Source of the DNA: Candidatus Caccoplasma sp.
GTDB lineage: Bacteria > Bacteroidota > Bacteroidia > Bacteroidales > G3-4614
Assembly: GCA_045587545.1 (NCBI GenBank)
Contig: JAZNCN010000028.1
Location: 143,425 to 207,424, forward strand
DNA: 64,000 nucleotides
Reading direction: 5' to 3'
Part shown: piece by piece, positions 6,913-63,044 of the stretch
Position numbering within the stretch: position 1 is the first letter of the stretch
How the letters are laid out: every line of letters begins with the position of its first letter
The notes under the pieces: generated by a model
The model's database searches: none
What the model was told of the DNA's origin: nothing
The model's input: only the letters and a program-made list of their open reading frames with translations
Made by a program: the position numbers and the translations under genes

Positions 6913-8208
6913 ATGCAAAACAGACAACCTGCCATAAAAGATTTTGATAATCTCGAGTTTAAGATGCCCTATTTAATAAATTCCGAGGCAGGTATTCCCA
7001 TATATGTATATGAGGGTGAAAAAATAGAGGTTTGCAGAGTTGATGTAATATTCTTCTGCGGTTCGTATAACGAAGATATAATACTTACAGCACAAACTAC
7101 AGCTGAATTAATAACAGAGGCAACATTAAAGAAAAGCTCATCAGTTTTTACCGAGCTAATTGATTTTTATGGTGGGTGGATAACAAAATGTTGTGCCAAA
7201 CACTTTACTACATTTACACTGTATGTCCCTGTAAGAACATATAAAAAACTTCTCCCCCTCTTCTTTGAAGCAATATCATCTCCACGTTTCAGCAAGCGAG
7301 ATTTAGAGAGATATAAACGCCAATTAATAGAGGGAATGAAGATAAACAAAAAAAAGGTTGATGTAATCTCATCAGAGATATTCCGCAAACAACTTTTTGG
7401 ATCTCACCCTTATGGTGTTACGCCCCAACCCGATGATTGCAACGCACTTAACAACGAAATACTTAAAGCATTCCATAACAAATGGTTTTATGCTTCAAAC
7501 TGCAACGTGGTTATATCGGGAGCAGTAACAGAAGATATGGTAAATATGTTACAAAAAGAGCTGTTACGAATACCTCAAAAAGAGCATATTACACCCAATA
7601 AAATTGCTATTGACAATAACATCAGTGAAACACTCTTTGTAAAAGAGGTTGAAAATGCAATGCAAAGTTCTGTTAGGATTGGCGCAAGAGTTATTAATAA
7701 CGATAATGCCGACCACTACAAACTACAAATTGTAAACACTGCATTAGGTGGATATTTTGGTAGCCGACTAAGTAAAAATATCAGAGAAGAGAAAGGTTAT
7801 ACATACGGTATATATTCGGGGATATTGGCTTTGCCTGATGCAGCACATTTTATGATTCTATCTCAAACAGGCATAAATTTTACTAAACCATTAATAAAAG
7901 AGGCAGAAAAAGAGATTATAAGAATTAAAGAAGAGCCTATCCCCAATGACGAATTGACAAGCCTTAAAGGATATATGCTCGGCAGTTATGCAAGAATGTT
8001 TGATACACGCTTCACCCTTGCCGATGCCTTTATATCGTTATTAACAAGTTACAAATCTCTGTCGGGCAAAGAGATTGACTTCAAAGATATATTCAATAAA
8101 CGCATAAACGAGATAAAAAGCATTACAGCAGACACTATTCTTGAAACTGCACAAAAATACCTGCCTGATTACACCGATATGATAACTGTTGTTGCAGGAA
8201 AGTTTTAG
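6913..8208 (+). CDS. M16 (insulinase/pitrilysin) family peptidase-like protein
   Basis: 431 aa with an M16 C-terminal-domain-like sequence. I saw no HxxEH motif, so it may be a non-catalytic subunit. Confidence 0.6.
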   Translation: MQNRQPAIKDFDNLEFKMPYLINSEAGIPIYVYEGEKIEVCRVDVIFFCGSYNEDIILTAQTTAELITEATLKKSSSVFTELIDFYGGWITKCCAKHFTTFTLYVPVRTYKKLLPLFFEAISSPRFSKRDLERYKRQLIEGMKINKKKVDVISSEIFRKQLFGSHPYGVTPQPDDCNALNNEILKAFHNKWFYASNCNVVISGAVTEDMVNMLQKELLRIPQKEHITPNKIAIDNNISETLFVKEVENAMQSSVRIGARVINNDNADHYKLQIVNTALGGYFGSRLSKNIREEKGYTYGIYSGILALPDAAHFMILSQTGINFTKPLIKEAEKEIIRIKEEPIPNDELTSLKGYMLGSYARMFDTRFTLADAFISLLTSYKSLSGKEIDFKDIFNKRINEIKSITADTILETAQKYLPDYTDMITVVAGKF

Positions 8209-8921
8209 TAGTTGTTAGTTATCAGCCAAGTAGGGACACAGCATGCTGTGTCCCTACTTGCATGGTTACAGAATTTTGCACCTCAGCTTATATGATTATC
8301 AATATCTTAATGTAGGGACGTACCATGGTACGTCCGAAAGAATAAAGAATAATAAATAGTTATTAGAGCCTTTATTGCTAATAACTAAGGTGCGTGGGTA
8401 GCACCATACAACTAAAAACTGACAACTTTTGACGCTCTTTTCAGTGGCATTTTAAGGTAATTACAAAGAAATTACCTTAAAATATCCTAAGGGTAGTTTA
8501 CAAACTTTGTCTGAAAGACTTTTGGCAAACCTGTTTGCCATTCAATAGCCGTAGGTTTTCAAACCTACGGAAAGAGTAAGATAGAACAATCACCGTCTGT
8601 AAAGACGGGAAGGTTGAATTTTGTGGTTTCCCGTCCTTCAGACGGACAAAGAAGATGGATCCTTTTCCCGTAGGTTTGAAAACCTACGGCTATTAAGTAG
8701 TTTCGCTTCGCTCAACCTGGTCTTATCAGACCATTTTTGAGAATCATTTACAGATGTAATATATTGTGTTATTTACAAGCAAAAGGTTGTAACGCGTACT
8801 ATTACGTTACAACCTCTTGCTTATTATTGAGTGTTATTCTAAAAACTAAAAACCACCCCGAAGGGGCAACGAAGTTGAAAACTAACAACTAAAAACTAAA
8901 TTTAGACGCTTGCGTTTAAAT
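8209..8921. repeat. 713-bp non-coding island made of concatenated hairpins/palindromes and AACTAAC-type motifs
   Basis: Perfect palindromes at 8229-8258 (agtagggacacagcatgctgtgtccctact) and 8316-8335 (ggacgtaccatggtacgtcc). Hairpins at 8357-8387, 8449-8483 and 8784-8815. Nested 149-bp palindrome at 8545-8693. No ORF of 60 aa or more lies inside it; only the 8910..9206 shadow ORF clips its last 12 bp. Confidence 0.8.
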
Positions 8922-9886: not shown

Positions 9887-10018
9887 GTATTGAAGAGAAA
9901 CGAAGTTGCAACCAACAACTAACAAATCTGCGAGTAAGCGAGGGCAAAATAAGTTTACTTAAACTTTGCCGAGCGTGAGCAGATTCAACGAACATATGTC
10001 CGTTAACTGACAACTAAC

Positions 10019-11191
10019 CTATTTTTTCATTAGTTTTTTTGATAGCCAACGGCGAACGGGCTCGTCGTATAATTTTAGTACGGCGTATGCCAATAGTATA
10101 CTTGAGAGTACTACTATAAGGGGTATTAACCATGTTTGTTGTAATGAGTAGTACTCTTCTTTTATTAGCCACTTATAGAATACGTACATTATGGGATAGT
10201 GTACTATATAGAGGGGATATGATATATCACCAAGGAATTTGTTTATTCTTCCTGTATAGTTATCGGTTGTGCCTCCGCATGCTCCCAACCACACTATAAA
10301 TGGGAATATGAGTGCTATACATACTACTTCGTATAGTGCGTTGATGCTTATATTTTCGGGTTTATATGCAATGAAAGGCACAGCAAATATAACAATCAGC
10401 ATTAGTGAGCATATCCAAAATGCTCCACCTATTTTGCGCGGTTTAAATGTACGTGCAAGCAACATTCCAACGGTAAATGGGAATAACATTCGCAATAGTC
10501 CGCCCCAGAAGTTTACGGTATCAATTGTCCACCCCACTCCTACACAGTTGTATTGCGATATATCAAATACATAAAACCAAGCGTGTAAAAGAGCCAACAC
10601 CACTACTAATAATGCAAGCAGTTTTGTTGATAAACGACGAATAATGAGTGCATATAGTATGTTGCCTATATATTCAAAGAACAACGACCATGATGGTCCG
10701 TTAAGGGGAAACATCTCGCCGTTTCCTCGCACTTCGTACGATGCTCCGGGTACGGCAGGTATCATAAACATTGTCAATAGCATTGCCAACATTACCCAAC
10801 TTATGGGGGTTGTTTCGCCACTCCATGTTTTAAATCCTTCAAACGCAAAAGCGATTACTCCTATTATGGCTCCCATTATAATCATTGGGTGCAAGCGTAT
10901 TAAACGGCGTTTGAAGAATGCTCCTAATGTCATCTTTTGCCAACGGTCGTCGTAAGCATAGCTTATTACAAAACCTGATAGTATAAAGAAGAAATCTACG
11001 GCTATATGCCCATGATTGAGGATACGAATTATTCCGTCGCCTGCTCCGTTTACTCCTTCGGCAAAGGCAAAGCCTTCAAATATATGATATATCAATACTA
11101 ATAAGGCTGCGACTCCGCGTAAGCCATCAAGTAGTTCGTAATGAGGTTTTGTATCGGCAAAGTTCTGTGATGCCACTAATTTTGTTTGCAT
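10019..11191 (-). CDS. acyltransferase family 3 membrane protein
   Basis: LDGLRGVAALLVLIYH motif with about 10 TM segments. Confidence 0.8.
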   Translation of the reverse strand: MQTKLVASQNFADTKPHYELLDGLRGVAALLVLIYHIFEGFAFAEGVNGAGDGIIRILNHGHIAVDFFFILSGFVISYAYDDRWQKMTLGAFFKRRLIRLHPMIIMGAIIGVIAFAFEGFKTWSGETTPISWVMLAMLLTMFMIPAVPGASYEVRGNGEMFPLNGPSWSLFFEYIGNILYALIIRRLSTKLLALLVVVLALLHAWFYVFDISQYNCVGVGWTIDTVNFWGGLLRMLFPFTVGMLLARTFKPRKIGGAFWICSLMLIVIFAVPFIAYKPENISINALYEVVCIALIFPFIVWLGACGGTTDNYTGRINKFLGDISYPLYIVHYPIMYVFYKWLIKEEYYSLQQTWLIPLIVVLSSILLAYAVLKLYDEPVRRWLSKKLMKK

Positions 11192-34947: not shown

Positions 34948-35403
34948 ATGGCTGAAACTCGAACAAAGAAGAGGCATAAAGGCGAAGTTCTCAGATTTGC
35001 TATTACAGGCGCATTAGTTACGTTTATACTCTATGCCGTATATCTTCCTTTATCATATATAATGCCAAACTATGTTGGAATTGCTTACTCTATTGGTTTT
35101 ATTGTGAGCTTTATTACCAATTTTGTTTTATCAAATTACTATACATTCCGCACTAAACCTACAATTGATAGAGCTATATTATTTTGTATAGTACAATTCA
35201 TAAACTATATGTTACAGATAATATGCTTTAAATTCTTTATATGGATTGGAGTAAGCAACGTATGGGCTCCTGTTCCTGTATGGGCTTTTATATTCCCTAT
35301 AAACTTTTTAATGATGAGAGTTGCACTGAAATCGGAATCAATAAAAGATTTAATGCATCGTATAATGAATATTGAAAGAAGGAATATCAACACAAAAGAT
35401 TAA
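34948..35403 (+). CDS. GtrA family membrane protein
   Basis: 151 aa, 4 TM, with the GtrA-like motif RFAITGALVTFI...NYYTFR. Confidence 0.75.
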   Translation: MAETRTKKRHKGEVLRFAITGALVTFILYAVYLPLSYIMPNYVGIAYSIGFIVSFITNFVLSNYYTFRTKPTIDRAILFCIVQFINYMLQIICFKFFIWIGVSNVWAPVPVWAFIFPINFLMMRVALKSESIKDLMHRIMNIERRNINTKD

Positions 35404-35485
35404 TATTTAAATTAGCATATATTTTTAATAAAAGATTTATTATTTTTGTAGTTAATAGAGTTTATATAAATAAATTATAATAATT

Positions 35486-36249: not shown

Positions 36250-37368
36250 ATGGATTTTTTAAATCTAAATAAAATATCGGAACCATACCGCAAAGAACTT
36301 GTTAAAGCAGCAACAGAAGTTATAAATAGCGGGTGCTACATAAGAGGAGAAAAATGTAAAGAATTTGAAGACCTCTTATGCCGATATTTAGGTTGCAACT
36401 ATGCAGTTGGCACAGGCAATGGATTAGATGCACTGAAACTGATATTCAGAGCCTACATTGAAATGGGAGTAATGACAGAAGGAGACGAGGTGATACTCCC
36501 TGCCAATACATTTATAGCAACAATGATTGCTGTAACAGAAAACAGATTAAAACCTGTAATAGCAGATATAGATGCAACAACACTCAATCTTGACATCAAC
36601 AATATTGAGAAACTAATAACTCCACGAACCAAAGCAATAATCCCCGTACACCTGTACGGGCGATGTTGCTGGAGCAATAAACTCAAAAATATTGCTCAAA
36701 AATACAATCTAAAAATAGTAGAAGACAATGCACAAGCAATGGGAGCTAAAAGCATGGTTTGTGGATTGAAAGAGAGTTATATGTGCGGAGCTTTAGGCGA
36801 TGCTGCCAGTACAAGTTTTTACCCCGTAAAAAACCTTGGTGCATTAGGCGACGGTGGTGCTGTAACTACAAACGATGCCAAATTGGCAGAGGTAGTTAGA
36901 GCATTAAGCAACTATGGGTCAGAAGAAAAATACATACACAAATACGTTGGCATAAATAGCCGATTAGACGAAATTCAGGCAGCAATGCTATGCGTAAAAC
37001 TCAAATATCTTGACCAAGAGAACAGACGCAGAATTGAAATTGCTGAACAATACAACAAAAACATTACTAACAATAAAATAATAAAACCATTATTAGGAGA
37101 GAATGGCGAATATGTATGGCATCAGTATGTTATACGCACAGAAAATCGTAACTATTTGATGCAAAAATTAGAGGAGCAAGGTATTCCAACAATGATACAC
37201 TACCCCACTCCTTTACATAAACACAAAGCCTATAAAGAGTTTAACTCATTATATTTACCTATTGCGGAGAGATGTGCTACTGAAATTCTCAGTTTACCCA
37301 TTAACCCCGCAATGAGTAATAGTGAGGTACTAAAAGTAGCAAAAGCGGTTAATATTAGTTGTAACTAA
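36250..37368 (+). CDS. DegT/DnrJ/EryC1/StrS family sugar aminotransferase
   Basis: 372 aa with [18 protein letters not shown] and [15 protein letters not shown] (PLP lysine region). The stop codon lies inside the heptad array. Confidence 0.85.
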
Positions 37369-37408
37369 CAACTAACAACTAACAACTAACAACTAACAAC
37401 TAACAACT
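37363..37408. repeat. tandem heptanucleotide array (AACTAAC) x6 plus aact
   Basis: Counted directly: units at 37363, 37370, 37377, 37384, 37391 and 37398. Contains TAA or TAG in all six frames. Confidence 0.95.
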
Positions 37409-37418
37409 GATACCTGAC

Positions 37419-38861
37419 ATGGCAGAATCATTAAGAGGAAAAACACTGAAAGGTATGATATGGAGTTTTGCAGAGAATTTTTCTCTGCAAGGTATTCAAT
37501 TTATCATTGGTATTCTGCTTGCTCGCGTTCTTTCTCCATCGGACTACGGTATGGTTGGAATGTTAGCAATATTCACTGCCGTTTCACAAACACTTATTAA
37601 TAGTGGTTTTAGTACTGCTCTTGTCAGGAAAAACGATAGAACTCAAGCAGACCTTTCAACTACCTTCTATTTTAATATAGTTGTCGGTTTTGTATTATAC
37701 TTTGTACTATTTTTCTCAGGTCCATTAATTGCAGACTTTTATAATACCCCACTCCTCTCAGATTTGATAAAAGTTACCGCAATATCTCTGATACTTAACT
37801 CATTATGTATTGTTCAACAAGCCCTCTTTACAATAAAGATGGACTTTAAGACCCAAGCCAAAATTTCAGTTATTGGAGCATTGGTTACGGGTGCTGGAGG
37901 AATAGCAATGGCATATACAGGATTTGGCGTATGGTCTATTGTATGGCCCGGAGTATTTGGCGGAGCAGTAAGATGTATTTTGCTATGGATATGGGGTAAA
38001 TGGCGACCAACATGGGAATATTCTTGGAAATCGTTTAAAGAGTTATTTGGTTTTGGGTCAAAGCTATTGGCATCAGGACTGATTGATACCATATACAACA
38101 ATATATATCCAATTATAATCGGTAAAAAATTCTCTGCTGCTGATTTGGGACAATACACCAGAGCTGACGGATATGCAAACCTTCCAGCAACAACAGTTAC
38201 CGGAGTGTTAGGCAGGGTTACGTTCCCTTTGCTATGTCAAATACAAGATGACGATAATAGGCTACAATCAACATACCGTCAATTAATAAAACTATCGGCA
38301 TACGTTGTATTTCCCATTATGATTGGTCTTGCAGCATTAGCTAAACCGCTAATCATATTTATGATAACAGCAAAGTGGGCTGAATGCGTTCCTTATTTAC
38401 AAATACTATGCTTTAGTTTAATGTGGTACCCTATACACGCATTAAACCTTAATCTATTACAAGTTAAAGGGCGAAGTGACCTGTTTTTAAAACTCGAAAT
38501 AATTAAAAAAATTCTTGGAGTTGCAGTCTTGATTATTGCTATACCTTTTGGAATTATATGGATGTGTGTTGGACGAATATTTACCTCTATAATTTGTTTA
38601 GCAATAAATACATATTATACAGGAAGACTCATTAATGTTGGTTTTTTCAAACAGATGGGAGATTTACTACCTATATTAATCCTTTCATTATCAATGGGAG
38701 CAATAGTTATTGCTGTAAACCTATTTATTAACGGATTGTTATTACAAATAATTATCGGATTAATTACAGGATTAGTCTATTATTTATCAATATCATACAT
38801 AATTAAATCAAAAGAATTGTTATATTTGCTTTCGTTATTGAAAAAGAATAAGAGTTGTTAG
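37419..38861 (+). CDS. wzx: polysaccharide flippase (MOP/Wzx family)
   Basis: 480 aa, about 12-14 TM, with a polysaccharide-biosynthesis-protein-like N-terminus (GMIWSFAENFSLQGIQFIIGILLARVLSPSDYG). Confidence 0.8.
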   Translation: MAESLRGKTLKGMIWSFAENFSLQGIQFIIGILLARVLSPSDYGMVGMLAIFTAVSQTLINSGFSTALVRKNDRTQADLSTTFYFNIVVGFVLYFVLFFSGPLIADFYNTPLLSDLIKVTAISLILNSLCIVQQALFTIKMDFKTQAKISVIGALVTGAGGIAMAYTGFGVWSIVWPGVFGGAVRCILLWIWGKWRPTWEYSWKSFKELFGFGSKLLASGLIDTIYNNIYPIIIGKKFSAADLGQYTRADGYANLPATTVTGVLGRVTFPLLCQIQDDDNRLQSTYRQLIKLSAYVVFPIMIGLAALAKPLIIFMITAKWAECVPYLQILCFSLMWYPIHALNLNLLQVKGRSDLFLKLEIIKKILGVAVLIIAIPFGIIWMCVGRIFTSIICLAINTYYTGRLINVGFFKQMGDLLPILILSLSMGAIVIAVNLFINGLLLQIIIGLITGLVYYLSISYIIKSKELLYLLSLLKKNKSC

Positions 38862-38882
38862 TTGTTGGTTGTTAGTTGTTAG
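38855..38882. repeat. inverted copy of the heptad array: (TTGTTAG) x4, one unit ttgttgg
   Basis: ttgttag ttgttgg ttgttag ttgttag. The first unit contains the wzx stop codon (38859-38861). Confidence 0.9.
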
Positions 38883-38934
38883 ATTTAGGGAACAAACTAA
38901 TAAAAAGCATTAAATAACTAATAGTTAAAATAAT

Positions 38935-40476
38935 ATGGATAAAAATAAGACTATAACAGTTACATCTCCCCTATTACCATCATTAGAGGAGTTGATGCCA
39001 TATCTTCAAGATATTTGGGACAGAAAGTGGCTGACTAATAACGGACACTATCATCAGGAGTTAGAGAAGGCTCTTTGCGAATATCTTAAAGTGCCATATA
39101 TAAGTTTGTTTACAAACGGAACACTTCCTTTAATAACTGCACTACAAGCATTGAGAGTGACAGGAGAGGTTATTACAACTCCATATAGTTTTGTGGCAAC
39201 TACACACTCGTTATGGTGGAATGGCATAAAACCTGTTTTTGTTGATATTGATCCTGAAACTTGCAATTTGGATCCTGCTAAAATTGAGGCAGCAATAACC
39301 CCTAAAACCACAGCCATAATGCCTGTTCACTGCTACGGAAAACCTTGTGATGTTAAAGGTATTCAAGAGGTAGCAGATAAATACGGATTGAAAGTTATTT
39401 ACGATGCAGCTCACGCATTTGGGGTGGAAGTTCTCCTCTCCCCTAACCCCTCTCCAGTAGAGAGGGGAATATATGGCTATAACAGAAGAACTGGAAACCC
39501 TGATATTTATGCACTTCTTAAGGGATATGCAATAGACAATAGAAAAAATCCCACAGAGGCAGAAAATATATTATGGCAAGTTCTTCGTAATAATCAATTA
39601 GGAACTAAATGGAGAAGACAACACATGATCCTTGATTTTATTGTAGATTTTGTATGTTTAGAAAAATCATTTATTATTGAAATAGATGGAGGATACCATA
39701 ACAATCCTAAACAAAAAGAAGCAGACAAAATAAGAGATAAGATTTTAGAAGAAAAAGGATTTTATGTTTTGCGTCTAACCAACGAAGAAGTAATTTCAAA
39801 CATTGATGAAACTATTGCTATAATTAAATCACAAATACAAAACCTCCCCCTACTGGGGGGAATGAGGGGGGAGTCCATTCTCAATTTCGGAGATATGAGT
39901 ACTTTGAGTTTCCATGCGACAAAGGTATATAACACTGTTGAAGGTGGTGCATTGATAATGCACGATGAGGAGACAAAAAAACGCATCGACTATCTTAAAA
40001 ACTTTGGATTTGCCGGAGAGACAGAGGTTATTGCTCCCGGTATAAATAGTAAAATGGACGAGATTCGCTCGGCATACGGATTATTGAGTTTAAAGAAAGT
40101 TGATGACTCAATAGCTGCACGAAAAAGAGTAGCCGAGATATATCGCAGTGAGTTACGCAACATACCTGGAATACGCTTTTTTGATGATATGCCGGGAGTT
40201 AAACATAACTACTCATATTTCCCAATTTTTGTTGAGAAAGATTATGGAATGAGTCGCGATGAACTATACTTTAAGATGAAAGCGAATAACGTTCTTGGCA
40301 GACGCTATTTTTATCCATTAATAAGTACATTCTCAACTTATAGAGGATTGGAGTCGTCAGATCCCAAGAACTTACCAATAGCAACACGCATTGCCGATGA
40401 GGTTATTTGCCTACCAATGCACAATGCTTTAAGCGAAAACGATATTCAAAGAGTAATTGATTGTATAAAGAAGTAA
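38935..40476 (+). CDS. DegT-family sugar aminotransferase carrying an internal in-frame DUF559 endonuclease domain
   Basis: N-terminal part ...KVIYDAAHAFGVEV and C-terminal part GESILNFGDMSTLSFHATKVYNTVEGGALI... are aminotransferase sequence. Codons 167-312 are DUF559-like. Confidence 0.85.
   Translation: MDKNKTITVTSPLLPSLEELMPYLQDIWDRKWLTNNGHYHQELEKALCEYLKVPYISLFTNGTLPLITALQALRVTGEVITTPYSFVATTHSLWWNGIKPVFVDIDPETCNLDPAKIEAAITPKTTAIMPVHCYGKPCDVKGIQEVADKYGLKVIYDAAHAFGVEVLLSPNPSPVERGIYGYNRRTGNPDIYALLKGYAIDNRKNPTEAENILWQVLRNNQLGTKWRRQHMILDFIVDFVCLEKSFIIEIDGGYHNNPKQKEADKIRDKILEEKGFYVLRLTNEEVISNIDETIAIIKSQIQNLPLLGGMRGESILNFGDMSTLSFHATKVYNTVEGGALIMHDEETKKRIDYLKNFGFAGETEVIAPGINSKMDEIRSAYGLLSLKKVDDSIAARKRVAEIYRSELRNIPGIRFFDDMPGVKHNYSYFPIFVEKDYGMSRDELYFKMKANNVLGRRYFYPLISTFSTYRGLESSDPKNLPIATRIADEVICLPMHNALSENDIQRVIDCIKK
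39433..39870 (+). mobile_element. DUF559 (Vsr-like PD-(D/E)xK endonuclease) cassette, 438 bp, in frame, with G/C-rich hairpin termini
   Basis: Encodes NPTEAENILWQVLRNNQLGTKWRRQHMILDFIVDFVCLEKSFIIEIDGGYH...VLRLTNEEV. Terminal hairpins cccctct/agagggg (39447-39467) and tccccc/ggggga (39845-39861). The ends are imperfect inverted repeats sharing CCAGTAG. Boundaries are good to within a few bp. Confidence 0.65.
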
Positions 40477-40480
40477 AAAT

Positions 40481-41410
40481 ATGAAACATTTACTTTTTAA
40501 TACAACTCCTGTTAATAAATTAAATTATTTTTCAAATAAATTAGGAGTTAATTTATATGTAAAAAGGGATGATTTATTTTTAGAAGCAGGAGGAGGTAGT
40601 AAAGCAAGAATGTTACAATACATTTTATCCGATATAAAATCAGAAAATTATGATGTATTATTAACAGCTGGAGGTCCATGTTCAAATTTCAATAGAGCTT
40701 GTGCATTAATGTGTGCAAAAATTGGGATACCAATGCATTTAGTTGAATACACTGATAATCCAAATGAATATAAGTCTTCTCTTAATTATTATATATGCCA
40801 ATTAGCAGGAATAAAGACAACTCGATGTAAGAAATCAGAAGTTCCAGAAACTATCTCTAAAGTACTTAACCAATATCAAAGTAAAGGAGAAAAGGTTAAA
40901 TTTATATATGGTGGCGGTAAATCAATTGAAGGGATATATTCTTATTATGAAGCTGTCAAAGAATTATATACTCAGATTCAAGATATAGACCATATATTCA
41001 TTGCATGCGGAACAGGGACAACACTGAGCGGGATATGTGCAGGAGTCCAAAAATATTATCCCAATACAAAAATACACGCGATATCTACTGCTCGTAATTA
41101 TGATGCAGAGTTACCGGTATTAACAGATAATATTAAACTTCTAAATAAGTATTTAGGCACAAAATACTCATTAGACAATTTAAAATTTTATGACGAATAT
41201 ATTTGTGGAGGATATGCAAAATATAATAATTCAATAATGAATATAATAAAAGAATGTATTAGTAACGAAGGAATGATTATTGACCCGACATACTCAGGTA
41301 AAGCATTTTGGGGAATGAATAATATAATCGAATCATCTGAAACATTTAAGGATAAAAACATTCTTTTTTGGAATACAGGAGGAATCATGAATCTATTATC
41401 AGCACATTAA
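40481..41410 (+). CDS. PLP-dependent enzyme of the ACC deaminase / D-cysteine desulfhydrase family
   Basis: GGGSKARMLQYIL (compare GGNKxRKLEYL) and the fold-type II PLP pattern CGTGTTLSG. Confidence 0.65.
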   Translation: MKHLLFNTTPVNKLNYFSNKLGVNLYVKRDDLFLEAGGGSKARMLQYILSDIKSENYDVLLTAGGPCSNFNRACALMCAKIGIPMHLVEYTDNPNEYKSSLNYYICQLAGIKTTRCKKSEVPETISKVLNQYQSKGEKVKFIYGGGKSIEGIYSYYEAVKELYTQIQDIDHIFIACGTGTTLSGICAGVQKYYPNTKIHAISTARNYDAELPVLTDNIKLLNKYLGTKYSLDNLKFYDEYICGGYAKYNNSIMNIIKECISNEGMIIDPTYSGKAFWGMNNIIESSETFKDKNILFWNTGGIMNLLSAH

Positions 41411-41419
41411 ATCGTTCAA

Positions 41420-41848
41420 ATGAAAACAATAGAACACATAACAAATAAAAAAGAATTAGAAGATTACCTTAATGAAGTAGATAAAGACTTTAATACTCCA
41501 TTAAGTAATAAAATATCAATAAGCATATTTGCATCTAAATTAGTTGAATATGGTAAAGTTTTCGTAATTAAAGAAAATAAAGAAACGTTAGCTATGATAA
41601 GTTTTTATTGTAATGATACAATAACCCATAAAGCATATCTTACTATATTATCAACAAAAGAACGAGCAAGAGGGAAAGGTTATGCTCGCTTATTAATTAC
41701 CAAAATGATAAGTATCTGTAAAGAGAATAAAATGCAACACATATATTGTGATTCCGTAAATCCTATTGCAATATCATTATATAAATCATTTGGGTTTACT
41801 GAATACAAAAAAGAAGAAAATAAAAGTTATTTAGAACTAAAATTATAA
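41420..41848 (+). CDS. GNAT family N-acetyltransferase
   Basis: 142 aa with the acetyl-CoA motif ERARGKGYARLLI. Confidence 0.75.
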   Translation: MKTIEHITNKKELEDYLNEVDKDFNTPLSNKISISIFASKLVEYGKVFVIKENKETLAMISFYCNDTITHKAYLTILSTKERARGKGYARLLITKMISICKENKMQHIYCDSVNPIAISLYKSFGFTEYKKEENKSYLELKL

Positions 41849-41858
41849 AATAAGCGAT

Positions 41859-42794
41859 ATGAATATATTGGTAACAGCAATTGGTTCATTTTCGGCAGAT
41901 TGTGTAATAAAAACATTAAAAAGGAAAAATCACAACGTAGTCGGATGTGATATATATCCTACCATTTGGCATGCTATATCAAAAGAGTGTGACAAAACAT
42001 ATCAAGTACCTTATGCTATAGATAAAGAATATGTAAATTTTTTATGTAGTATATGTATCAATGAAAAAATAGATTGTATAATACCCCTAACAGACTTGGA
42101 AATTGATGTTCTAAATAACAACAGAAAGAGTTTCAAAGATATTGGTGTTAACGTATATATACAATCTGAATCATGTTTAAATATTGCAAGAGATAAGTAT
42201 GCAATGTATAATATATTTAAAGATGATATAATTGTAAACGTACCAAATTCTATTTCTTCATCAAACCTTACTACAAACTTTCCATTACCCGCAATAGCAA
42301 AACCAATAAACGGTAGAAGTAGTGAAGGATTAAAAATAATTGAAAACATAAAAGAACTTGAACAATTAATTAATATACCAAAGTATATTATTCAAGAAAA
42401 GATATCTGGCTCTGTAATAACAGTGGATTACGTCAGAGACAAGCATGGTAATGATTTTGCTATTCCTCGAGAAGAATTATTAAGGACGAAGAATGGAGCA
42501 GGAACAACAATAAAGATCATTAATAATAAAGAACTAAATGAAACAGTCTCATATATAGGTAATAAGTTAAATGTAGTTGGATGTGTTAATATGGAATTTA
42601 TTCACAACAATGACAAATTTTATCTAATAGACATAAATCCAAGATTCTCTGCGGGAGTGGCATTCAGTAACTTTATTGGATTTGATATGATTACTAGTCA
42701 TATAAATTCTTTTATAGGGAAGGAAATATGCAATAAAATAGAAATTATTGAGCAAATAATTTGTAAACGATATTACGAAGAAAAATTAGATTAA
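41859..42794 (+). CDS. ATP-grasp domain protein
   Basis: 311 aa with AKPINGRSSEGLKII...IIQEKISG...NMEFI...YLIDINPRFS (ATP-grasp signature). Confidence 0.75.
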   Translation: MNILVTAIGSFSADCVIKTLKRKNHNVVGCDIYPTIWHAISKECDKTYQVPYAIDKEYVNFLCSICINEKIDCIIPLTDLEIDVLNNNRKSFKDIGVNVYIQSESCLNIARDKYAMYNIFKDDIIVNVPNSISSSNLTTNFPLPAIAKPINGRSSEGLKIIENIKELEQLINIPKYIIQEKISGSVITVDYVRDKHGNDFAIPREELLRTKNGAGTTIKIINNKELNETVSYIGNKLNVVGCVNMEFIHNNDKFYLIDINPRFSAGVAFSNFIGFDMITSHINSFIGKEICNKIEIIEQIICKRYYEEKLD

Positions 42795-42802
42795 TATAAA
42801 TA

Positions 42803-43762
42803 ATGTCAGAAAAAACACCATTAGTAAGCGTATTAACATTAGCATATAACCATGCTCCATATATAAGAGAGTGTTTGGACGGAATTCTTATGCAAAAAAC
42901 AAATTTTGCATTTGAATTACTAATTCATGATGATGCCTCAACCGATGGCACTGCCGATATAATTAGAGAATACGAAGCAAAATACCCTGATATAGTAAAG
43001 CCCATATACCAAACCGAAAATCAATATAGTAAAGGAGTGAAAATAACAATAACATATCAGTTCCCCAGAGTAAAGGGTAAGTATATTGCTTTATGCGAAG
43101 GTGATGATTATTGGACTGACCCTCTAAAACTCCAAAAACAAGTTGATTTTATGGAGGCAAATCCTGATTATGGATTGTGTTATACAAGCATAAATATGCT
43201 TCATTTGGATAAATCATTTTCTCATGAATATAATTTCTCAAACGATTTTGAGCCCACAATAAAAGAATTAATGATTAGTAATCCTATATGTACTTTAACA
43301 ACTCTATTTAGAAAAGATTTATATGCCCAATATATTGAAGAGGTAGAACCCCAAAATCAAAATTGGAAGATGGGTGATTATCCAATATGGATATGGTTCT
43401 CGCTACATTTAAAAATAAAATACCTAAGTGATATCACTGGTGTATATAGGAGAACAATAGGCAGTGCAAGTAATAGCAGTGATAAAAACAAACAATTATC
43501 ATTTCTATTAAATGTTATTGATATTAAAACATTCTTTAAAGAGAAATATGATATATGTAATTCTCTCTATTTATATGGCACAGCTAATACATATACTCAA
43601 TGCCGAGGAATTGCAATTGATATTGGCAGGTGGGATATTATAAAAAAAGAGATTAAAACGGCAAGACTCCTAAAAAATTGGAAAAGAGTTATAAAACTTA
43701 AAGTTTTATATATAGCCAGATATAATAAACGTATACTAAATTTTATAAATAGCCAAATATGA
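42803..43762 (+). CDS. glycosyltransferase family 2
   Basis: VSVLTLAYNHAPYIRECLDGILMQ...LIHDDASTDGT...CEGDDYW. Confidence 0.85.
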   Translation: MSEKTPLVSVLTLAYNHAPYIRECLDGILMQKTNFAFELLIHDDASTDGTADIIREYEAKYPDIVKPIYQTENQYSKGVKITITYQFPRVKGKYIALCEGDDYWTDPLKLQKQVDFMEANPDYGLCYTSINMLHLDKSFSHEYNFSNDFEPTIKELMISNPICTLTTLFRKDLYAQYIEEVEPQNQNWKMGDYPIWIWFSLHLKIKYLSDITGVYRRTIGSASNSSDKNKQLSFLLNVIDIKTFFKEKYDICNSLYLYGTANTYTQCRGIAIDIGRWDIIKKEIKTARLLKNWKRVIKLKVLYIARYNKRILNFINSQI

Positions 43763-43784
43763 TAAAAGATGCTTTTTACTTAAT

Positions 43785-44534
43785 ATGGCAACAGGAATAA
43801 TAATACAAGCAAGGACTGGTTCAAGTAGATTACCTCAAAAAATGGTGATACCTTTCTTTGACGGTATGGGAATACTTGAGATCTTACTCAAACGATTAAA
43901 GAATAATATTGATTGTAAAATTATTATTGCAACAACTGATAACGAAAGAGACAATATTATTGAAAATGTTGCAATAAAAAATGATTGTCTATGTTATCGA
44001 GGATCAGAAGATGATGTATTATTAAGATTTATTGAAGCTGCTGAATTTCATAATATCTCAAAAATTATTAGGATATGTGCCGATAACCCATTTTTAGATA
44101 TGCGATCTCTAAGGGAGTTAATAAACTATAGCGAAAATAGAGACGAGGATTATATATCTTTCTGCACATCAGATGGTACTCCCACTATAAAAACTCATTA
44201 TGGATTTTGGGCTGAATATGTTACATTAGATGCTTTAAAGAGAGTAAATTCTTTAACAAGTGAAAAGCTCTATCATGAACATGTAACAAATTATATATAT
44301 GCAAATAAAAATATATTTAGCACAAACTTTATTCAAATTCCAAAATGGATTGAAGACAAACCTATAAGATTGACATTAGATACTCAAGAGGATTTTGAGA
44401 TGCAACAAAACATATTTAAATATGTTATAGATAATAATTTAAATATTAAGATAGATGATGTTATTAACTATTTAAATAGTAATAATGATTACTATTTAAA
44501 AATGAGTTCTATTATATCTCAAAATAAAAAATAA
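43785..44534 (+). CDS. SpsF/PseF-like cytidylyltransferase family protein
   Basis: IIIQARTGSSRLPQKM...RGSEDDVLLRF...ICADNPF, the CTP_transf_3-type pattern. Confidence 0.65.
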   Translation: MATGIIIQARTGSSRLPQKMVIPFFDGMGILEILLKRLKNNIDCKIIIATTDNERDNIIENVAIKNDCLCYRGSEDDVLLRFIEAAEFHNISKIIRICADNPFLDMRSLRELINYSENRDEDYISFCTSDGTPTIKTHYGFWAEYVTLDALKRVNSLTSEKLYHEHVTNYIYANKNIFSTNFIQIPKWIEDKPIRLTLDTQEDFEMQQNIFKYVIDNNLNIKIDDVINYLNSNNDYYLKMSSIISQNKK

Positions 44535-44538
44535 TTTT

Positions 44539-46045
<1,507 letters not shown>

Positions 46046-46090
46046 TATTATCTTCGCATACAAATCATCACATAATTTAATTAATACAAT

Positions 46091-47948: not shown

Positions 47949-47951
47949 AGT

Positions 47952-49016: not shown

Positions 49017-49025
49017 GATGGTAAG

Positions 49026-50165
49026 ATGGTATATATAGTTGTAACTCCATTTTTCCCCGAGCCTGATAATTTTAGAGGTCCTTATGTATATGATCAGGTA
49101 AAGGCTATTATTAAAAGCAATAAATATGACAAGGTTATTGTTTTTAAACCTTCTTTACTACAAAACAATGAGAAAGACTATATTTATGATGGTATAGAGG
49201 TATATAGATTTAATACCCTTCAAGTACCTTCTGCCATATTGCCCGGAGCCTTTGATTGCTATAATATATGTTCTTTCAAGAAAAAGCTTAAGGGTTTAAA
49301 TATTGATATTAAAGATATTGCAGTTATACATTGCCACGTTACAGGACTTGGCATATATGCAAATGCTCTTAAAAATAAAAATCCCCAAATTAGGACTATT
49401 CTTCAACATCACGGTTTTGATGTTTTAAGCCTTAAAAACGGACGCTGTGCCAATATGGGTTGGCATAAAAAATATATGGTTTGGTATGGCAGCAGAATAT
49501 GTAATAAAATTGATATTAATGTTGGGGTTAGTAATAAAACTTTAGAGTACCTGACTTTATATAAAGATGTTACTCCCAAACAAACATATACGCTGTATAA
49601 TGGGGTTGACCTTTCAAAGTTCTACCCTACCCAACCTAAAAAAGAGTCTGATAAATTTATTATTGGGTGTGTCGGAAATTTTTGGAAATTAAAAGACCAA
49701 ATCACACTAATTAAGGCAGTTGAGATTTTAAAAAGTAAAGGATATCACAATATACTCGTCAGATTTATTGGTAGTGGGGCAACTTTGAATGAATGTAAAG
49801 AGTATGTTGAAAATAACAATCTAAATGAACAAATAAGTTTTGAGACTGAAATATCTCATAGGGAACTGAACAACTATTACAACTCTCTTGATTTATTTGT
49901 TCTTCCATCATATTGGGAGGCCTTCGGTTGTGTATATACCGAAGCATACGCATGTGGTATTCCATTTATCGCAGTTAAAGGGCAAGGTATTTCTGAACTT
50001 ATTCCTGAAAAAGATAGTGATAAATGGTTAATAGATAAAGGAGATTTTGTATCTTTGAGTAATAATATTGAAAAGTATATAAATAACAGATATAAGCAAG
50101 AACTTACTATTGATATTAATATAGATACTCTTGTAAATGAGTTTTTACAGAGAATCAGTTGTTAG
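49026..50165 (+). CDS. glycosyltransferase family 4 (GT-B)
   Basis: LPSYWEAFGCVYTEAYACGIPFIA motif. The stop codon lies inside an agttgttagttgtt motif. Confidence 0.8.
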   Translation: MVYIVVTPFFPEPDNFRGPYVYDQVKAIIKSNKYDKVIVFKPSLLQNNEKDYIYDGIEVYRFNTLQVPSAILPGAFDCYNICSFKKKLKGLNIDIKDIAVIHCHVTGLGIYANALKNKNPQIRTILQHHGFDVLSLKNGRCANMGWHKKYMVWYGSRICNKIDINVGVSNKTLEYLTLYKDVTPKQTYTLYNGVDLSKFYPTQPKKESDKFIIGCVGNFWKLKDQITLIKAVEILKSKGYHNILVRFIGSGATLNECKEYVENNNLNEQISFETEISHRELNNYYNSLDLFVLPSYWEAFGCVYTEAYACGIPFIAVKGQGISELIPEKDSDKWLIDKGDFVSLSNNIEKYINNRYKQELTIDINIDTLVNEFLQRISC

Positions 50166-50171
50166 TTGTTC

Positions 50172-50213
50172 AAATTAGTCCTATTAGTCTAATTAGTCAA
50201 ATTGGACAAATTA
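50172..50213. repeat. ATTAG-rich ~40-bp module, copy B
   Basis: aaattagtcctattagtctaattagtcaaattggacaaatta, left flank of the four-helix-bundle gene. Confidence 0.85.
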
Positions 50214-50222
50214 TAATAAGTT

Positions 50223-50780
50223 ATGACAAAAAAGTTTTTAAAACAAAAAGGTAATTATCGTAATTTAATTGCATATCAAAAGGCTGAGTGCATTTATGAT
50301 ATTACATACTATTTTGTACATAAATTTCTTGAAAAAGGAGATAGGACTATTGACCAAATGATTCAGGCAGCAAGAAGTGGGAAACAAAATATTGCAGAAG
50401 GGTCCTCTGCATCTACAACTTCAAGCGAAACTGAAATTAAATTAATTAATGTTGCTAAGGCAAGTTTACAAGAACTTTTAATCGACTATGAAGATTATTT
50501 AAGAGTTAGAGGTCTTGAACAATGGAATTATAATTGCGACAAAGCAACACAAACTCGTAAAATATGCTCAAAACATAATGAATCTGAATTTTACAGAAAT
50601 GCTATTTTAACAAGAAACGATGAAACAATAGCAAATATAGCTATTACTCTAATTCACCAAGAAGATGTTTTCTTGAGAAAATTACTTGATTCCTTACAAG
50701 AAACTTTTGTTGAAGATGGTGGAATAAGGGAACAAATGAGTAAAGCCAGAATAGAACATCGCAAAAATAATAAAGAATAA
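50223..50780 (+). CDS. four-helix-bundle protein (23S rRNA intervening-sequence protein / Avd family) with C-terminal extension
   Basis: YRNLIAYQKAECIYDITYYF...DQMIQAARSGKQNIAEG...LINVAKASLQELL is typical of the PF05635/TIGR02436 family. Confidence 0.75.
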   Translation: MTKKFLKQKGNYRNLIAYQKAECIYDITYYFVHKFLEKGDRTIDQMIQAARSGKQNIAEGSSASTTSSETEIKLINVAKASLQELLIDYEDYLRVRGLEQWNYNCDKATQTRKICSKHNESEFYRNAILTRNDETIANIAITLIHQEDVFLRKLLDSLQETFVEDGGIREQMSKARIEHRKNNKE

Positions 50781-50784
50781 TATT

Positions 50785-50826
50785 ATTAGACCAATTAGTC
50801 TAATTAGTCCAATTGGACCAATTAAT
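50785..50826. repeat. ATTAG-rich ~40-bp module, copy C
   Basis: attagaccaattagtctaattagtccaattggaccaattaat, right flank of the four-helix-bundle gene, followed by caactaacaact. Confidence 0.85.
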
Positions 50827-50852
50827 AAAATACAACTAACAACTTAAAAAAG

Positions 50853-54954: not shown

Positions 54955-56007
54955 ATGCCAAAGCCAATATACGACATAGTATTTTTAACCGGGACTCCTT
55001 CGTTCTACAAAACCAATCTCTTTAATTGCATTGCAAATGAGAGAAAGGTTTTAGTTGTATATTGCGGGTACTATGACGGTGCTGAAAATTCTTCGGAAGA
55101 TGAATTAAACGAGTGTAAATTTGATTATAAATTTATTTACAAAAGAGATATTGAACAACGTAATAAAATAAAGTGTTTCTTTAAACTCATTTCTGTTTTA
55201 AGAAAGATTAAATACAAAAAGATTATTCATGAGGGGTGGTATATTCCCGAATATATTATTCTTTCATTCCTCACCCCAAAGCGTAAAAATGCGACTATGT
55301 GCGAAAGCACAATTTATGAATCAAATATTTCGGGTTTAAGAGGTTTTATTAAACGAGTTATTATAAACAGGTGTTCTACTGCCCTACCCTCAGGAACTGC
55401 TCATAAAGCTATTTTCGATGCTATTGGGTTTAAAGGTGATATTTATATTACAGGCGGGGTTGGCATTTTTCATAAACCTGAAAGGTTTATTGATAAAGAT
55501 AAAATATCAATAGAAAAAAAATACCTTTATGTTGGCAGATTGATTGAATGTAAGAACTTGCGATTCTTAATTGAACGCTTTAACAAGAACGGAAAACATC
55601 TGACTATTGTTGGAAAAGGAGAACTAGAACAAGAGTTAAAGACTTTATCAAAAGATAATATTACTTTTAAAGGCTTTGTTGAAAACGACAAACTACCCGA
55701 AGTTTACAAAGAGCATGATATTTTTATTTTGCCATCAAGAACCGAGACATGGGGTTTGGTTGTTGAAGAGGCTATTTATTGGGGATTACCTGTTGTTGTA
55801 AGCGACAGAGTTGGTTGCGGTAATGAAATGGTTATCACACCAAAGACAGGTGTTACTTTTGAATTGGATAATATTGACTCTTTCAACTTGGCAATTAACG
55901 ACATAGAACAAAATTATAAGCAATACCGAGATAATGCCATTGCTGTTGATTTTGAGGAAAGAGATACAAAGCAGATAAAATGCTTTGTATCAGTTGTTAG
56001 AAATTAA
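54955..56007 (+). CDS. glycosyltransferase family 4
   Basis: LPSRTETWGLVVEEAIYWGLPVVVS motif. Confidence 0.85.
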   Translation: MPKPIYDIVFLTGTPSFYKTNLFNCIANERKVLVVYCGYYDGAENSSEDELNECKFDYKFIYKRDIEQRNKIKCFFKLISVLRKIKYKKIIHEGWYIPEYIILSFLTPKRKNATMCESTIYESNISGLRGFIKRVIINRCSTALPSGTAHKAIFDAIGFKGDIYITGGVGIFHKPERFIDKDKISIEKKYLYVGRLIECKNLRFLIERFNKNGKHLTIVGKGELEQELKTLSKDNITFKGFVENDKLPEVYKEHDIFILPSRTETWGLVVEEAIYWGLPVVVSDRVGCGNEMVITPKTGVTFELDNIDSFNLAINDIEQNYKQYRDNAIAVDFEERDTKQIKCFVSVVRN

Positions 56008-56074
56008 ATAAGGTCAATAATAAAAGTTGTTAGTTTTCAACTTCGTTGCCCTACGGGTAGTTGTTAGATTTATT

Positions 56075-56113
56075 ATGACAAAAAAGTTTTTAAAGCAAAT
56101 TAATGCCGTTTAA
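56075..56113 (+). pseudogene. 5' remnant of a four-helix-bundle gene (12 codons, MTKKFLKQINAV*)
   Basis: atgacaaaaaagtttttaaagcaaa matches the first 25 nt of the intact gene at 50223 in 24 of 25 positions. It then joins directly to an ATTAG module (56118-56151). Confidence 0.7.
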
Positions 56114-56117
56114 GTTT

Positions 56118-56151
56118 TTAGACTAATTAGTCTAATTGGACAAATTAATAG
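56118..56151. repeat. ATTAG-rich module, copy D
   Basis: ttagactaattagtctaattggacaaattaatag. Confidence 0.8.
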
Positions 56152-56188
56152 ATTTAATAATAACGTACTAATTCCTAATTTAACAATT

Positions 56189-57280: not shown

Positions 57281-57322
57281 GTTTTTTAGAATTAGAAATT
57301 AGGGATAAGGAATTAGATGTTT

Positions 57323-57365
57323 AAATTAGACCAATTAGACTAATTAGTCCAATTTGACAAATTAG
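57323..57365. repeat. ATTAG-rich module, copy E
   Basis: aaattagaccaattagactaattagtccaatttgacaaattag, preceded by further aattag motifs at 57289-57316. Confidence 0.85.
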
Positions 57366-57370
57366 AAGCG

Positions 57371-57416
57371 CAACTAACAACTAACAACTAACAACTAACA
57401 ACTAACAACTAACAAC
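57371..57416. repeat. tandem heptanucleotide array (CAACTAA) x6 plus caac, directly abutting a TTG start
   Basis: Units at 57371, 57378, 57385, 57392, 57399 and 57406. Same sequence and orientation as 37363-37408. Confidence 0.95.
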
Positions 57417-58526: not shown

Positions 58527-58535
58527 TAATATATT

Positions 58536-59977: not shown

Positions 59978-59986
59978 TAAATTATT

Positions 59987-62734: not shown

Positions 62735-62835
62735 TTTTTTAGTTGTTAGTTGTCAGCTTTGAGATAAAGTTCCCCGTCGCACAGAGCACTGATTTCCTCC
62801 GTCGCATAGGAGTTATGCTCCCCCATACTGCGGTC

Positions 62836-62962
62836 GGATTAACATTCAGTTAATCCTATTTGCTAAAGCAAATACCTTGTATGCCCCATTTTAAGGCACA
62901 AATTGACATTTAGTCAATTTTAATTACATAGTAATTACCTTAAACTACCCCATATGGGGTAG
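62836..62962. repeat. chain of five back-to-back short hairpins
   Basis: 62836-62856 ggattaac/gttaatcc; 62857-62874 tatttgc/gcaaata; 62900-62920 aaattgac/gtcaattt; 62921-62937 taattac/gtaatta; 62945-62962 perfect palindrome ctaccccatatggggtag. Confidence 0.8.
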
Positions 62963-63044
62963 TTGTTAGCAAAAAATTTGTTTAACAAACATGAATATTT
63001 ATTAGTTATTTATTATTAGAGATATAATTTTTTTTGATAATATT

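Follow-up and report, generated by a model that had tools for sequence, protein, structure and literature searches.

The oldest example of heptanucleotide repeats at intergenic sites is reportedly the STRR family, which Mazel and colleagues are said to have found in 1990 dispersed at non-coding sites of heterocystous cyanobacterial genomes. The family is defined for cyanobacteria and has the units CCCCAGT, TTGGTCA, and CAACAGT; it is mentioned in PMC2670836 and PMC4046671. Repeats of this kind have been known since 1990 and, to our knowledge, nobody has shown their function. Here we analyze arrays of the heptamer AACTAAC (GTTAGTT on the other strand) in a 64,000-nt stretch of DNA, hereafter the window, from the uncultured Bacteroidales bacterium Candidatus Caccoplasma sp. 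(assembly GCA_045587545.1, contig JAZNCN010000028.1, positions 143,425 to 207,424). The arrays are a new example of the described intergenic heptanucleotide repeats (STRR, LSSR, TAACTGA, and GGGAATC kinds). They change by whole 7-nt units, with the youngest, perfect units farthest from the start codon, and they persist only in untranslated gaps of operon mRNAs, where they are polar relative to genes and able to take over stop codons. We give about an even chance to the explanation that we consider best, namely that these slippage-made repeats are retained as unstructured spacers for translation initiation and as hairpin arms between cistrons.

TAACTGA direct repeats have been described in Beggiatoaceae, Cyanobacteria, and five Bacteroidetes (MacGregor, 2015; PMC4679880). 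They lie mostly in forward orientation a few nt from start codons and sometimes reversed right after a stop, they differ between strains by 7-nt indels, and their neighboring genes are functionally unrelated; S1, Csp, and CsrA were proposed as binders (PMC4679880). A G-quadruplex mechanism was proposed for the GGGAATC repeats of Xanthomonas and the GGGGA(T/C)T repeats of Nostoc PCC 7120, about 90% of which are intergenic, with the C-rich strand as sense strand 0–50 bp upstream of open reading frames (ORFs) and the G-rich strand as sense strand 0–50 bp downstream, stop-codon overlap included (Rehm et al., 2015; PMC4692102). According to the account given in PMC4679880, the LSSR survey of Mrazek et al. 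(2007) found heptamers to be the commonest long-unit class and proposed polymerase slippage as their origin. In Haemophilus influenzae, PMC8262952 and PMC12721329 describe a heptamer simple sequence repeat (SSR) 5′ of hmw1A and hmw2A whose variable copy number gives graded expression via the promoter or processing of the 5′ untranslated region (UTR).

The window is 89% coding, the remaining 11% being non-coding DNA or gene ends. Its Pfam content is Bacteroidales-type, with a methylmalonyl-CoA decarboxylase operon and surface proteins of the Flg_new, GEVED, and DUF6383 kinds; the nearest proteins to those of the window come from uncultured Bacteroidales. A polysaccharide locus reaches from 36250 to past 62734 and encodes DegT, Wzx, Wzy, and many glycosyltransferases (Pfam). 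Tandem Repeats Finder (TRF) found head-to-tail 7-nt units at three places: 6.6 copies of AACTAAC at 37363–37408 and 6.7 copies of CAACTAA at 57371–57417, both with 100% matches, and 4.3 inverted copies of AGTTGTT at 38853–38882 with 91% matches (one A>G change). The array ahead of wzx consists of eight in-phase heptads (37363–37418), six perfect ones followed by AACTGAT and ACCTGAC, and these span exactly the distance from the penultimate codon of DegT to the wzx ATG at 37419.

The exact 7-mer AACTAAC occurs 27 times in the window, compared to 12.0 ± 3.4 in shuffled sequences (shuffle maximum, 20), and the 9-mer AGTTGTTAG occurs 24 times, compared to 0.74 ± 0.93 expected from shuffles. A scan for periodic 14-mers with at most two mismatches returned 14 sites (4.9 ± 2.2 in shuffles), all 14 of which lie in spacers or on gene ends and last codons. 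By these counts the motif is strongly non-random and confined to junctions, and motif sequence was present at every position that the original prediction had listed; two of these (55992–56000 and 62960–62969) are lone 9–10-mers, and a further four (8410, 8871, 9909, and 10005) hold degenerate copies. Among spacers longer than 40 nt in the window, the motif is borne by 6 of 7 inside the polysaccharide locus versus 2 of 13 outside it (Fisher p = 0.004). None of the window's four divergent (promoter) spacers carries it, and a search of the whole window against Rfam 15 gave no match at gathering score. The motif had also been described as placing stop codons in all six frames. The arithmetic is correct, but at least three units are needed and only three arrays in the window have them; moreover, stop-free arrays such as AACCAAC occupy the same contexts, so that six-frame stops are not supported as the defining property. 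The features are given below with coordinates, strand, and description.

8205..8225, minus strand: trailer of M16 peptidase gene 6913–8208; a strong hairpin follows at 8227–8258
8407..8427, plus strand: degenerate units AACTAAA AACTGAC AACT, in a 713-nt convergent spacer
8839..8900, plus strand: trailer of minus-strand gene 8922–9623, with GTTAGTT-type units flanking a terminator-like hairpin, CCCCTTCGGGG
9908..9928, plus strand: degenerate units CAACCAACAACTAACAA, GTTAGTT-type in the sense of the minus-strand genes, adjoining the 9-mer array 9851–9890
10004..10019, plus strand: trailer of minus-strand acyltransferase gene 10019–11191, in gene sense TAG followed by GTTAGTTGTCAGTTA
37355..37362, minus strand: single inverted unit TTAGTTGT, whose codons give the final DegT residues I-S-C and for which pairing with leader unit 1 is predicted; variably present among close strains
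37363..37418, plus strand: wzx leader, (AACTAAC)x6 + AACTGAT + ACCTGAC, containing the DegT stop TAA (37366–37368)
38853..38882, minus strand: wzx trailer, (GTTAGTT)x4.3 in mRNA sense, containing the wzx stop TAG (38859–38861)
50154..50172, minus strand: trailer of glycosyltransferase family 4 (GT4) gene 49026–50165, GTTGTTAGTTGTT, providing its TAG stop
50171..50213, plus strand: 9-mer array (AATTAGTCY) between the GT4 trailer and the following ORF
50223..50780, plus strand: small ORF for a four-helix-bundle protein of the 23S rRNA intervening-sequence protein (IVP) type, PF05635-like with a score under the Pfam cut-off
50785..50824, plus strand: 9-mer array 3′ of the IVP-type ORF
50830..50849, plus strand: wzy leader ACAACTAACAACTT, 7 nt ahead of the GTG start at 50853
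55992..56071, minus strand: trailer region of GT4 gene 54955–56007, three AGTTGTTAG pieces and a small GC hairpin (56045–56061) with U-rich heptad tail
56118..56147, plus strand: 9-mer array 5′ of GT4 gene 56189–57280
57323..57366, plus strand: 9-mer array 3′ of GT4 gene 56189–57280
57371..57416, plus strand: leader of GT4 gene 57417–58526, (CAACTAA)x6.6, abutting the TTG start at 57417
62735..62758, minus strand: trailer of GT2 gene 61970–62734, TTTTTTAGTTGTTAGTTGTCAGCT
62949..62969, minus strand: small hairpin CCCCATATGGGG, then TAGTTGTTAG

The orientation of the repeat follows that of the genes. All three leaders in the window present AACTAAC in mRNA sense directly ahead of a start codon, with distances of 0 nt (in phase) to the wzx ATG, 7 nt to the wzy GTG, and 0 nt to the TTG of GT4 gene 57417, a start that was set by alignment with the paralog from residue 1. 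All ten trailers present GTTAGTT in sense at or just past a stop; the remaining site, 8407–8427, lies in a convergent spacer. The arrangement includes the forward orientation a few nt 5′ of start codons reported for TAACTGA repeats and follows the gene-relative polarity rule of Rehm et al. (2015). We then scanned a species-representative genome collection for (AACTAAC)x3 and obtained at least 120 loci from many phyla; all figures for these other genomes refer to the matches listed. The hosts included filamentous cyanobacteria, many Bacteroidota, Thermoanaerobaculia, Firmicutes, Planctomycetes, and Nitrospirae. For 112 arrays away from locus ends, an ATG ORF began within 40 nt past the array in 25 AACTAAC-sense cases versus 5 GTTAGTT-sense cases, and an ORF ended in or within 10 nt of the array in 41 GTTAGTT-sense versus 8 AACTAAC-sense cases; with a stricter gene map the ratios were 22:4 for leaders and 39:2 for trailers, and ratios of 23:4 and 36:2 were likewise obtained in genomes. 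None of 133 arrays lay inside a called gene. The same loci contain 313 other heptamer arrays, in which the strand with G<C prevailed 28:4 ahead of starts and the strand with G>C prevailed 69:3 past stops. When the sequences of the genes beside the arrays were read, they looked functionally miscellaneous and included housekeeping genes.

In viral contigs, (AACTAAC)x3 was found at 56 loci with a leader ratio of 15:0, and the composition-matched control heptads CAATCAA and ACACTAA gave 11:0 and 9:0, which makes 35:0 for leaders in viral contigs. Reversed or permuted control units were found at 39 and 20 viral loci, i.e., at 0.4–0.7 times the frequency of AACTAAC. We had considered the recurrence of AACTAAC across phyla as the sign of a special shared sequence, a notion that these control counts weaken. 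They also bear on the proposal that the arrays are bound by a protein with sequence specificity for RNA or single-stranded DNA (S1-, Csp-, or CsrA-like) and so mark a post-transcriptional regulon. Binders of this kind were proposed for TAACTGA (PMC4679880), a partner protein was suggested in bioRxiv 10.1101/2022.06.06.494920, one unit dominates the window, and arrays fall within the ribosome footprint of three genes. However, control heptads behave alike, different heptads interchange at one site in close strains, and the window has no candidate gene with a link to the arrays, so that we regard this proposal as very doubtful.

Besides phage-like contigs, (AACTAAC)x3 was observed in contigs labeled as giant-virus metagenome-assembled genomes (GVMAG; L131, L154, L157, L158). 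Very long perfect AACTAAC arrays of 161, 151, 110, and 107 nt occur at L080 7069–7229, L107 2698–2848, L007 6420–6529, and L066 (contig end), respectively; hosts of such arrays are Winogradskyella pacifica, a Stigonema metagenome-assembled genome (MAG), and a Peptococcaceae MAG. Several arrays are located at contig ends, a hint that they interrupt assembly.

Since the repeat occupies gene ends, it also writes them. As read from the sequence, DegT (36250–37368) ends in ATT AGT TGT AAC TAA, wzx (37419–38861) in AAG AGT TGT TAG, and GT4 gene 49026–50165 in ATC AGT TGT TAG, while the motif starts 0–6 nt past the stop in 6913–8208, 61970–62734, and the minus-strand gene 10019–11191. In four genes the stop is furnished by the repeat or lies directly against it. 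The motif thus supplies or abuts stops, as had been proposed, and the related C-termini are a mechanical consequence of the repeat, because its TAG is always preceded by AGT TGT. That it overlaps or replaces native 3′ ends is likewise seen among relatives: DegT proteins 90–100% identical end in the repeat-derived ...NISCN*, ...NISCS*, or ...NISC*, or else in ...VNK* where a GC-hairpin filler is present, and Wzx ends in ...KNKSC* in the window versus ...KNK* in the syntenic contigs L244 and L247.

Contigs syntenic with the window were grouped by DegT identity: L244, L248, and L249 at 97–98% (flanks up to 99% at the DNA level), L247 at 96%, L245 and L246 at 94%, and, more distantly, L121 at 91%, L122–L125 at 77%, and L126–L128 at 74%. 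An exact look-up of the DegT protein of the window returned no match, although an NCBI record holds an identical sequence. The wzx leader has eight units in the window, five in L244, L248, and L121, four in L249, and three in L126, so that the strains differ in steps of 7 nt. The degenerate units AACTGAT and ACCTGAC, next to the ATG, are conserved, and the perfect ones are distal to the start, as slippage would lead one to expect. AACTAAC units are missing before wzx in L247; a GC-rich hairpin element is found there instead, followed by an array of AATTACT-type heptads. After wzx, the GTTAGTT trailer of the window corresponds to a GC hairpin in L244, L247, and L126.

Varying copy number is what would be expected if the arrays were contingency repeats that tune wzx, wzy, and the glycosyltransferases in the manner of a phase switch or rheostat and so diversify the surface polysaccharide. 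The H. influenzae hmw heptamers in the 5′ UTR act in this way according to PMC12721329 and PMC8262952, which likewise concern 7-nt repeats of variable copy number upstream of surface-structure genes, and a tract of the classical phase-variable kind, (CAAC)x15.5, puts an acyltransferase ORF out of frame in the same polysaccharide locus. That tract (63056–63117) does break a frame, though, while the heptad arrays lie outside ORFs. Gain or loss of a unit leaves the start-codon context, the 20–40 nt before the start, unaltered, since the array is periodic and runs directly up to the start. No known promoter flanks the arrays, which also differ from the hmw SSR in being intra-operonic and in abutting start codons. 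The same arrays, furthermore, precede housekeeping genes in free-living bacteria and occur in phages. Taken together, we think it quite unlikely that the AACTAAC arrays are contingency repeats.

Within 63045–63130, the (CAAC) tract sits at the 5′ coding end of an ORF resembling acyltransferase-3. An ATG at 63045 reads through it and stops right after, and the long ORF is in another frame without an ATG of its own; loss of one unit or gain of two would restore the frame. By its sequence, the ORF looks like a classical phase-variable gene in the OFF state.

The motif had further been proposed to mark junctions at which cassettes of capsule genes are joined or exchanged. Comparison with the relatives located five distinct gene-content breakpoints, two of which touch heptads. 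Three arrangements are found downstream of DegT, namely wzx, an unrelated acyltransferase-like gene in its place (L245 and L246), or unrelated convergent genes (L122–L125, in which DegT ends AGT TGT TAG TTG), and heptad units are present in each. In L245 and L246, homology to the window ends inside the array, at 37377, and the replacement gene of L245 retains an (AACTAAC)x4 AACTGAT leader and, with it, the opening five codons of wzx (MAESL). These observations, the enrichment of the motif in spacers of the polysaccharide locus, and the inverted arrays that bracket the single genes wzx, the IVP-type ORF, and GT4 gene 56189 would suit recombination junctions for exchange or insertion of polysaccharide cassettes. 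On the other hand, both heptad-touching breakpoints are one junction, that of DegT, which doubles as the natural border of the variable region, and the breakpoints 35390/35436, 40471, and 42782 carry no motif and have junctions of 4–45 nt. With heptad spacers making up ~16% of gene junctions, two of five is not significant (estimated p ~0.18). Gene-relative polarity and housekeeping neighbors in other phyla are unexpected for a DNA recombination site, and no recombinase was recognized among the window ORFs that were scanned, which were not all of them. The sequence comparison as a whole supports a cassette-exchange junction weakly; we consider it improbable.

Two kinds of mobile element were rejected for similar reasons. 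Integron attC sites have the core GTTRRRY and the inverse core RYYYAAC. They share with the arrays a short likeness (GTTAG/CTAAC) and the position between cassettes, and are rejected for the tandem form, where attC is a single imperfect palindrome (R″-L″...L′-R′) downstream of each cassette, and for the opposite order relative to the ORF; no IntI integrase or other recombinase gene was recognized among the ORFs scanned, a set that does not include every ORF of the window. Ends of transposons or of miniature inverted-repeat transposable elements are ruled out by the tandem arrays and the gene-relative polarity, again with no recombinase recognized among the scanned ORFs.

The breakpoint 35390/35436 reflects presence or absence of an acyltransferase gene. 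This acyltransferase-3 gene of ~1.1 kb lies between GtrA-like and META-domain genes in several relatives (L121, L244, L122, and L126 were compared) and is absent from the window, L245, and L247; an 18-nt A/T-rich tandem repeat (35394–35441), not heptads, is found at the junction. Additionally, the segment of L244 (12056–13273) that replaces window 40472–42781 has a DDE transposase gene on the opposite strand, with flanks 96–99% identical.

The wzx leader was unpaired in the minimum-free-energy fold, except for its first one to two units (37365–37372). Pairing of the last codons of DegT, UUAGUUGU, with leader unit 1 is predicted at −13.1 kcal/mol (z −2.4), and pairing of the wzx trailer with the A/C-rich segment 38897–38924, just ahead of the ATG of the following gene (38935), at −19.3 kcal/mol (z −2.96). 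Over 30 nt, leader and trailer of wzx show 97% complementarity, the single mismatch reading as a G-U pair in RNA. Elsewhere, trailers paired mainly downstream in 20 of 41 AACTAAC-type cases and in 46 of 79 cases of other heptamers, while leaders paired upstream in 8 of 26 and 17 of 38 cases, respectively. From these counts, a common architecture would follow in the predicted folds, in which a GU-rich arm comes after the stop codon and is joined by a loop to an AC-rich arm that precedes the start codon.

A role as transcription terminators or insulators between cassettes (the original prediction had also entertained an insulator) found some encouragement at three trailer sites (56045–56061, 62949–62969, and 8853–8866 on the minus strand), where a small GC hairpin is paired with a U-rich heptad tail. 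The three large arrays, in contrast, lack the GC hairpin and U tract of an intrinsic (Rho-independent) terminator, have no hairpin of their own, and lie in 50–73-nt gaps of an apparently co-directional operon. Terminator-like sites were at shuffle level in 36900–51000 (5 versus 4.7); in 55800–63200 they were in excess (10 versus 3.3 ± 1.7), but only 1 of the 10 was at a heptad site. Leader arrays, moreover, lie where transcription must continue. Given this lack of enrichment at the arrays and the motif-free divergent spacers, the insulator proposal is not upheld, and we consider terminators or insulators highly improbable.

The original prediction could assign the motif to no described repeat family; the properties above fit the intergenic heptamer repeat class (PMC4679880, PMC4692102). 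AACTAAC was not found as a repeat string in the papers covered by a text search. TAACTGA repeats resemble AACTAAC in being tandem intergenic 7-mers with forward-frame stops and indels in 7-nt steps, and no RNA structure is predicted for them; they, too, are found in Bacteroidetes, including long arrays, and the ATG-proximal unit AACTGAT of the wzx leader is a rotation of TAACTGA. They differ in that the dominant unit here is TAACAAC/AACTAAC, AACTGAT occurring only as single ATG-proximal units, in that the complement of AACTAAC carries stops and that of TAACTGA (TCAGTTA) does not, and in that the present host is an uncultured Bacteroidales whose sites are concentrated in a polysaccharide locus. 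With STRR, which is dispersed at many non-coding sites of a genome, the arrays share tandem heptanucleotides in non-coding DNA (14 sites within the 64-kb window), but their unit differs from those of STRR1–3 and the window is Bacteroidales-like. In cyanobacterial loci among the matches listed, a CAACAGT unit, which matches STRR3, co-occurs with AACTAAC arrays. LSSR is a purely statistical category with no content of polarity or function. Finally, the GGGAATC/GGGGATT repeats have a gene-relative polarity identical to that of AACTAAC. They can form G-quadruplexes, whereas GTTAGTT, with its isolated G residues, cannot, and the polarity common to both therefore cannot depend on quadruplexes.

How the arrays might act is suggested by what is known of their hosts. 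Initiation in Bacteroidetes is Shine-Dalgarno-independent and tuned by mRNA structure and upstream A residues, with AUG depleted near starts (PMC6847099). The AACUAAC strand lacks G, contains neither AUG nor GUG nor UUG, offers a stop in each frame, and would be essentially unpaired; as such it may fill the 0–50 nt before starts that lack a Shine-Dalgarno sequence (the wzx ATG, wzy GTG, and GT4 TTG). A leader free of G and of start codons would be an ideal, or at least harmless, initiation region, serving as an open landing or standby region for ribosomes and terminating translation that arrives from upstream. The GUUAGUU strand may be tolerated or used right past stops, often supplying the stop and with it a -Ser-Cys tail, and in about half of cases it may fold with the A/C-rich leader of the following gene into a hairpin, of which it makes the 5′ arm and that leader the 3′ arm. 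This stop/start geometry would couple translation of neighboring cistrons or stabilize processed mRNA ends.

Several points weigh against this explanation. We infer its functional steps from position and composition, and the leader polarity could be explained without function by purifying selection against the G/U-rich strand, which has UUG and can pair, near starts. The trailer bias (36:2 in the genomes) is not explained by the leader idea without a partner arm, and viral contigs show no trailer bias (7:5). Position −3 of wzx is G, not A. Slippage alone leaves the dominance of one unit at 14 sites in 64 kb unexplained. The arrays are also dispensable: L247 has another heptad at wzx, L126 only three units, and a GC hairpin replaces the wzx trailer in three strains.

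Alternatively, the arrays may be functionless products of slippage in any untranslated gap, selection removing only the orientation that would harm a neighboring start or stop. The rapid turnover and swapping with other fillers between strains 96–99% identical, the control heptads that form arrays at 0.4–0.7 times the frequency with the same leader polarity, and the functionally unrelated adjacent genes (also PMC4679880) all accord with this. Random seeds, however, should give many units rather than the same one at site after site; heptads persist at the wzx start in four lineages; and no obvious cost model accounts for the very strong trailer bias. We therefore rate functionless slippage as a serious yet somewhat unlikely alternative.

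Other repeats accompany the heptads. The consensus of the trailers is AGTTGTTAGTTNTCARCTT, often followed by a small GC hairpin, and 9-mer arrays (AATTAGTCY) occur at 9851–9890, 50171–50213, 50785–50824, 56118–56147, and 57323–57366. There is an exact 27-nt inverted copy (8864–8890 and 56025–56051). The IVP-type ORF (50223–50780) has 9-mer arrays on both sides and, outside these, inverted heptads. Upstream of another gene, at 56075–56098, there is a 24-nt remnant of the 5′ end of this ORF (ATGACAAAAAAGTTTTTAAA...), and L086 (3565–4420), from another Bacteroidales MAG, has an IVP-type homolog after the 9-mer array AAATCGAAT and an (AACAACT)x4 leader. A general association between arrays and 23S-rRNA-IVP-type genes was considered and dropped, tblastn having given only this one further case among 120 listed loci. 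The GT4 genes at 56189–58526 are tandem paralogs with 45% amino-acid identity, between which lie a 9-mer array and the 46-nt heptad array.

The second DegT aminotransferase gene (38935–40476) carries an in-frame DUF559 (Vsr-like endonuclease) domain at residues 198–301, an insert that is conserved in relatives. The GC-rich hairpin element cccctctccagtagagagggg occurs ~25 residues upstream of this domain (window ~39440–39470) and a second hairpin at its C-terminal edge (~39844–39862). Solo copies of the cccctctccagtagagagggg type occupy intergenic junctions in related strains (L126 at 11126, 12644, and 13214; after wzx in L244 and L247), where they give DegT and wzx an AAT AAA TAG (-NK*) ending. 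The GC-rich hairpin looks like a second, mobile filler element. In the convergent spacer 8209–8921 (713 nt), there is a very stable hairpin at 8227–8258 (−31.7 kcal/mol, z −5.4), a 33-nt inverted repeat with arms 94% complementary (8544–8576/8662–8694), and further palindromes at 8312–8336 and 8787–8816, none of which matched an Rfam family. This spacer could be host to small RNAs or miniature mobile elements.

For annotation, these results mean that heptamer repeats and the GC-hairpin filler overwrite last codons and stops, producing -SC, -SCN, and -NK tails, and arrays like AACTAAC may break short-read assemblies. Extending the explanation we favor, G-free arrays and their GU-rich complements may be the two halves of a Shine-Dalgarno-independent translation device in Bacteroidota, cyanobacteria, other phyla, and phages, a speculative idea that we think unlikely as a whole. 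Ribosomes would land on the A/C-rich array immediately ahead of the start; its complement at the preceding stop would either keep this pad covered until translation of the upstream cistron, thereby coupling the two, or indicate where processing takes place. Slippage would be free to tune the number of units, and leader plus first codons may be a portable module, as the MAESL case of L245 suggests. The polarity of a unit that cannot form quadruplexes, seen also in phage contigs (35:0), argues against quadruplexes and for a constraint at the level of mRNA or translation. The locus sets a heptamer repeat against three start codons, two of them non-ATG, in a member of the Bacteroidales that does not use Shine-Dalgarno sequences, and its strain alleles differing only in unit number make possible a clean experimental test of a translational role.

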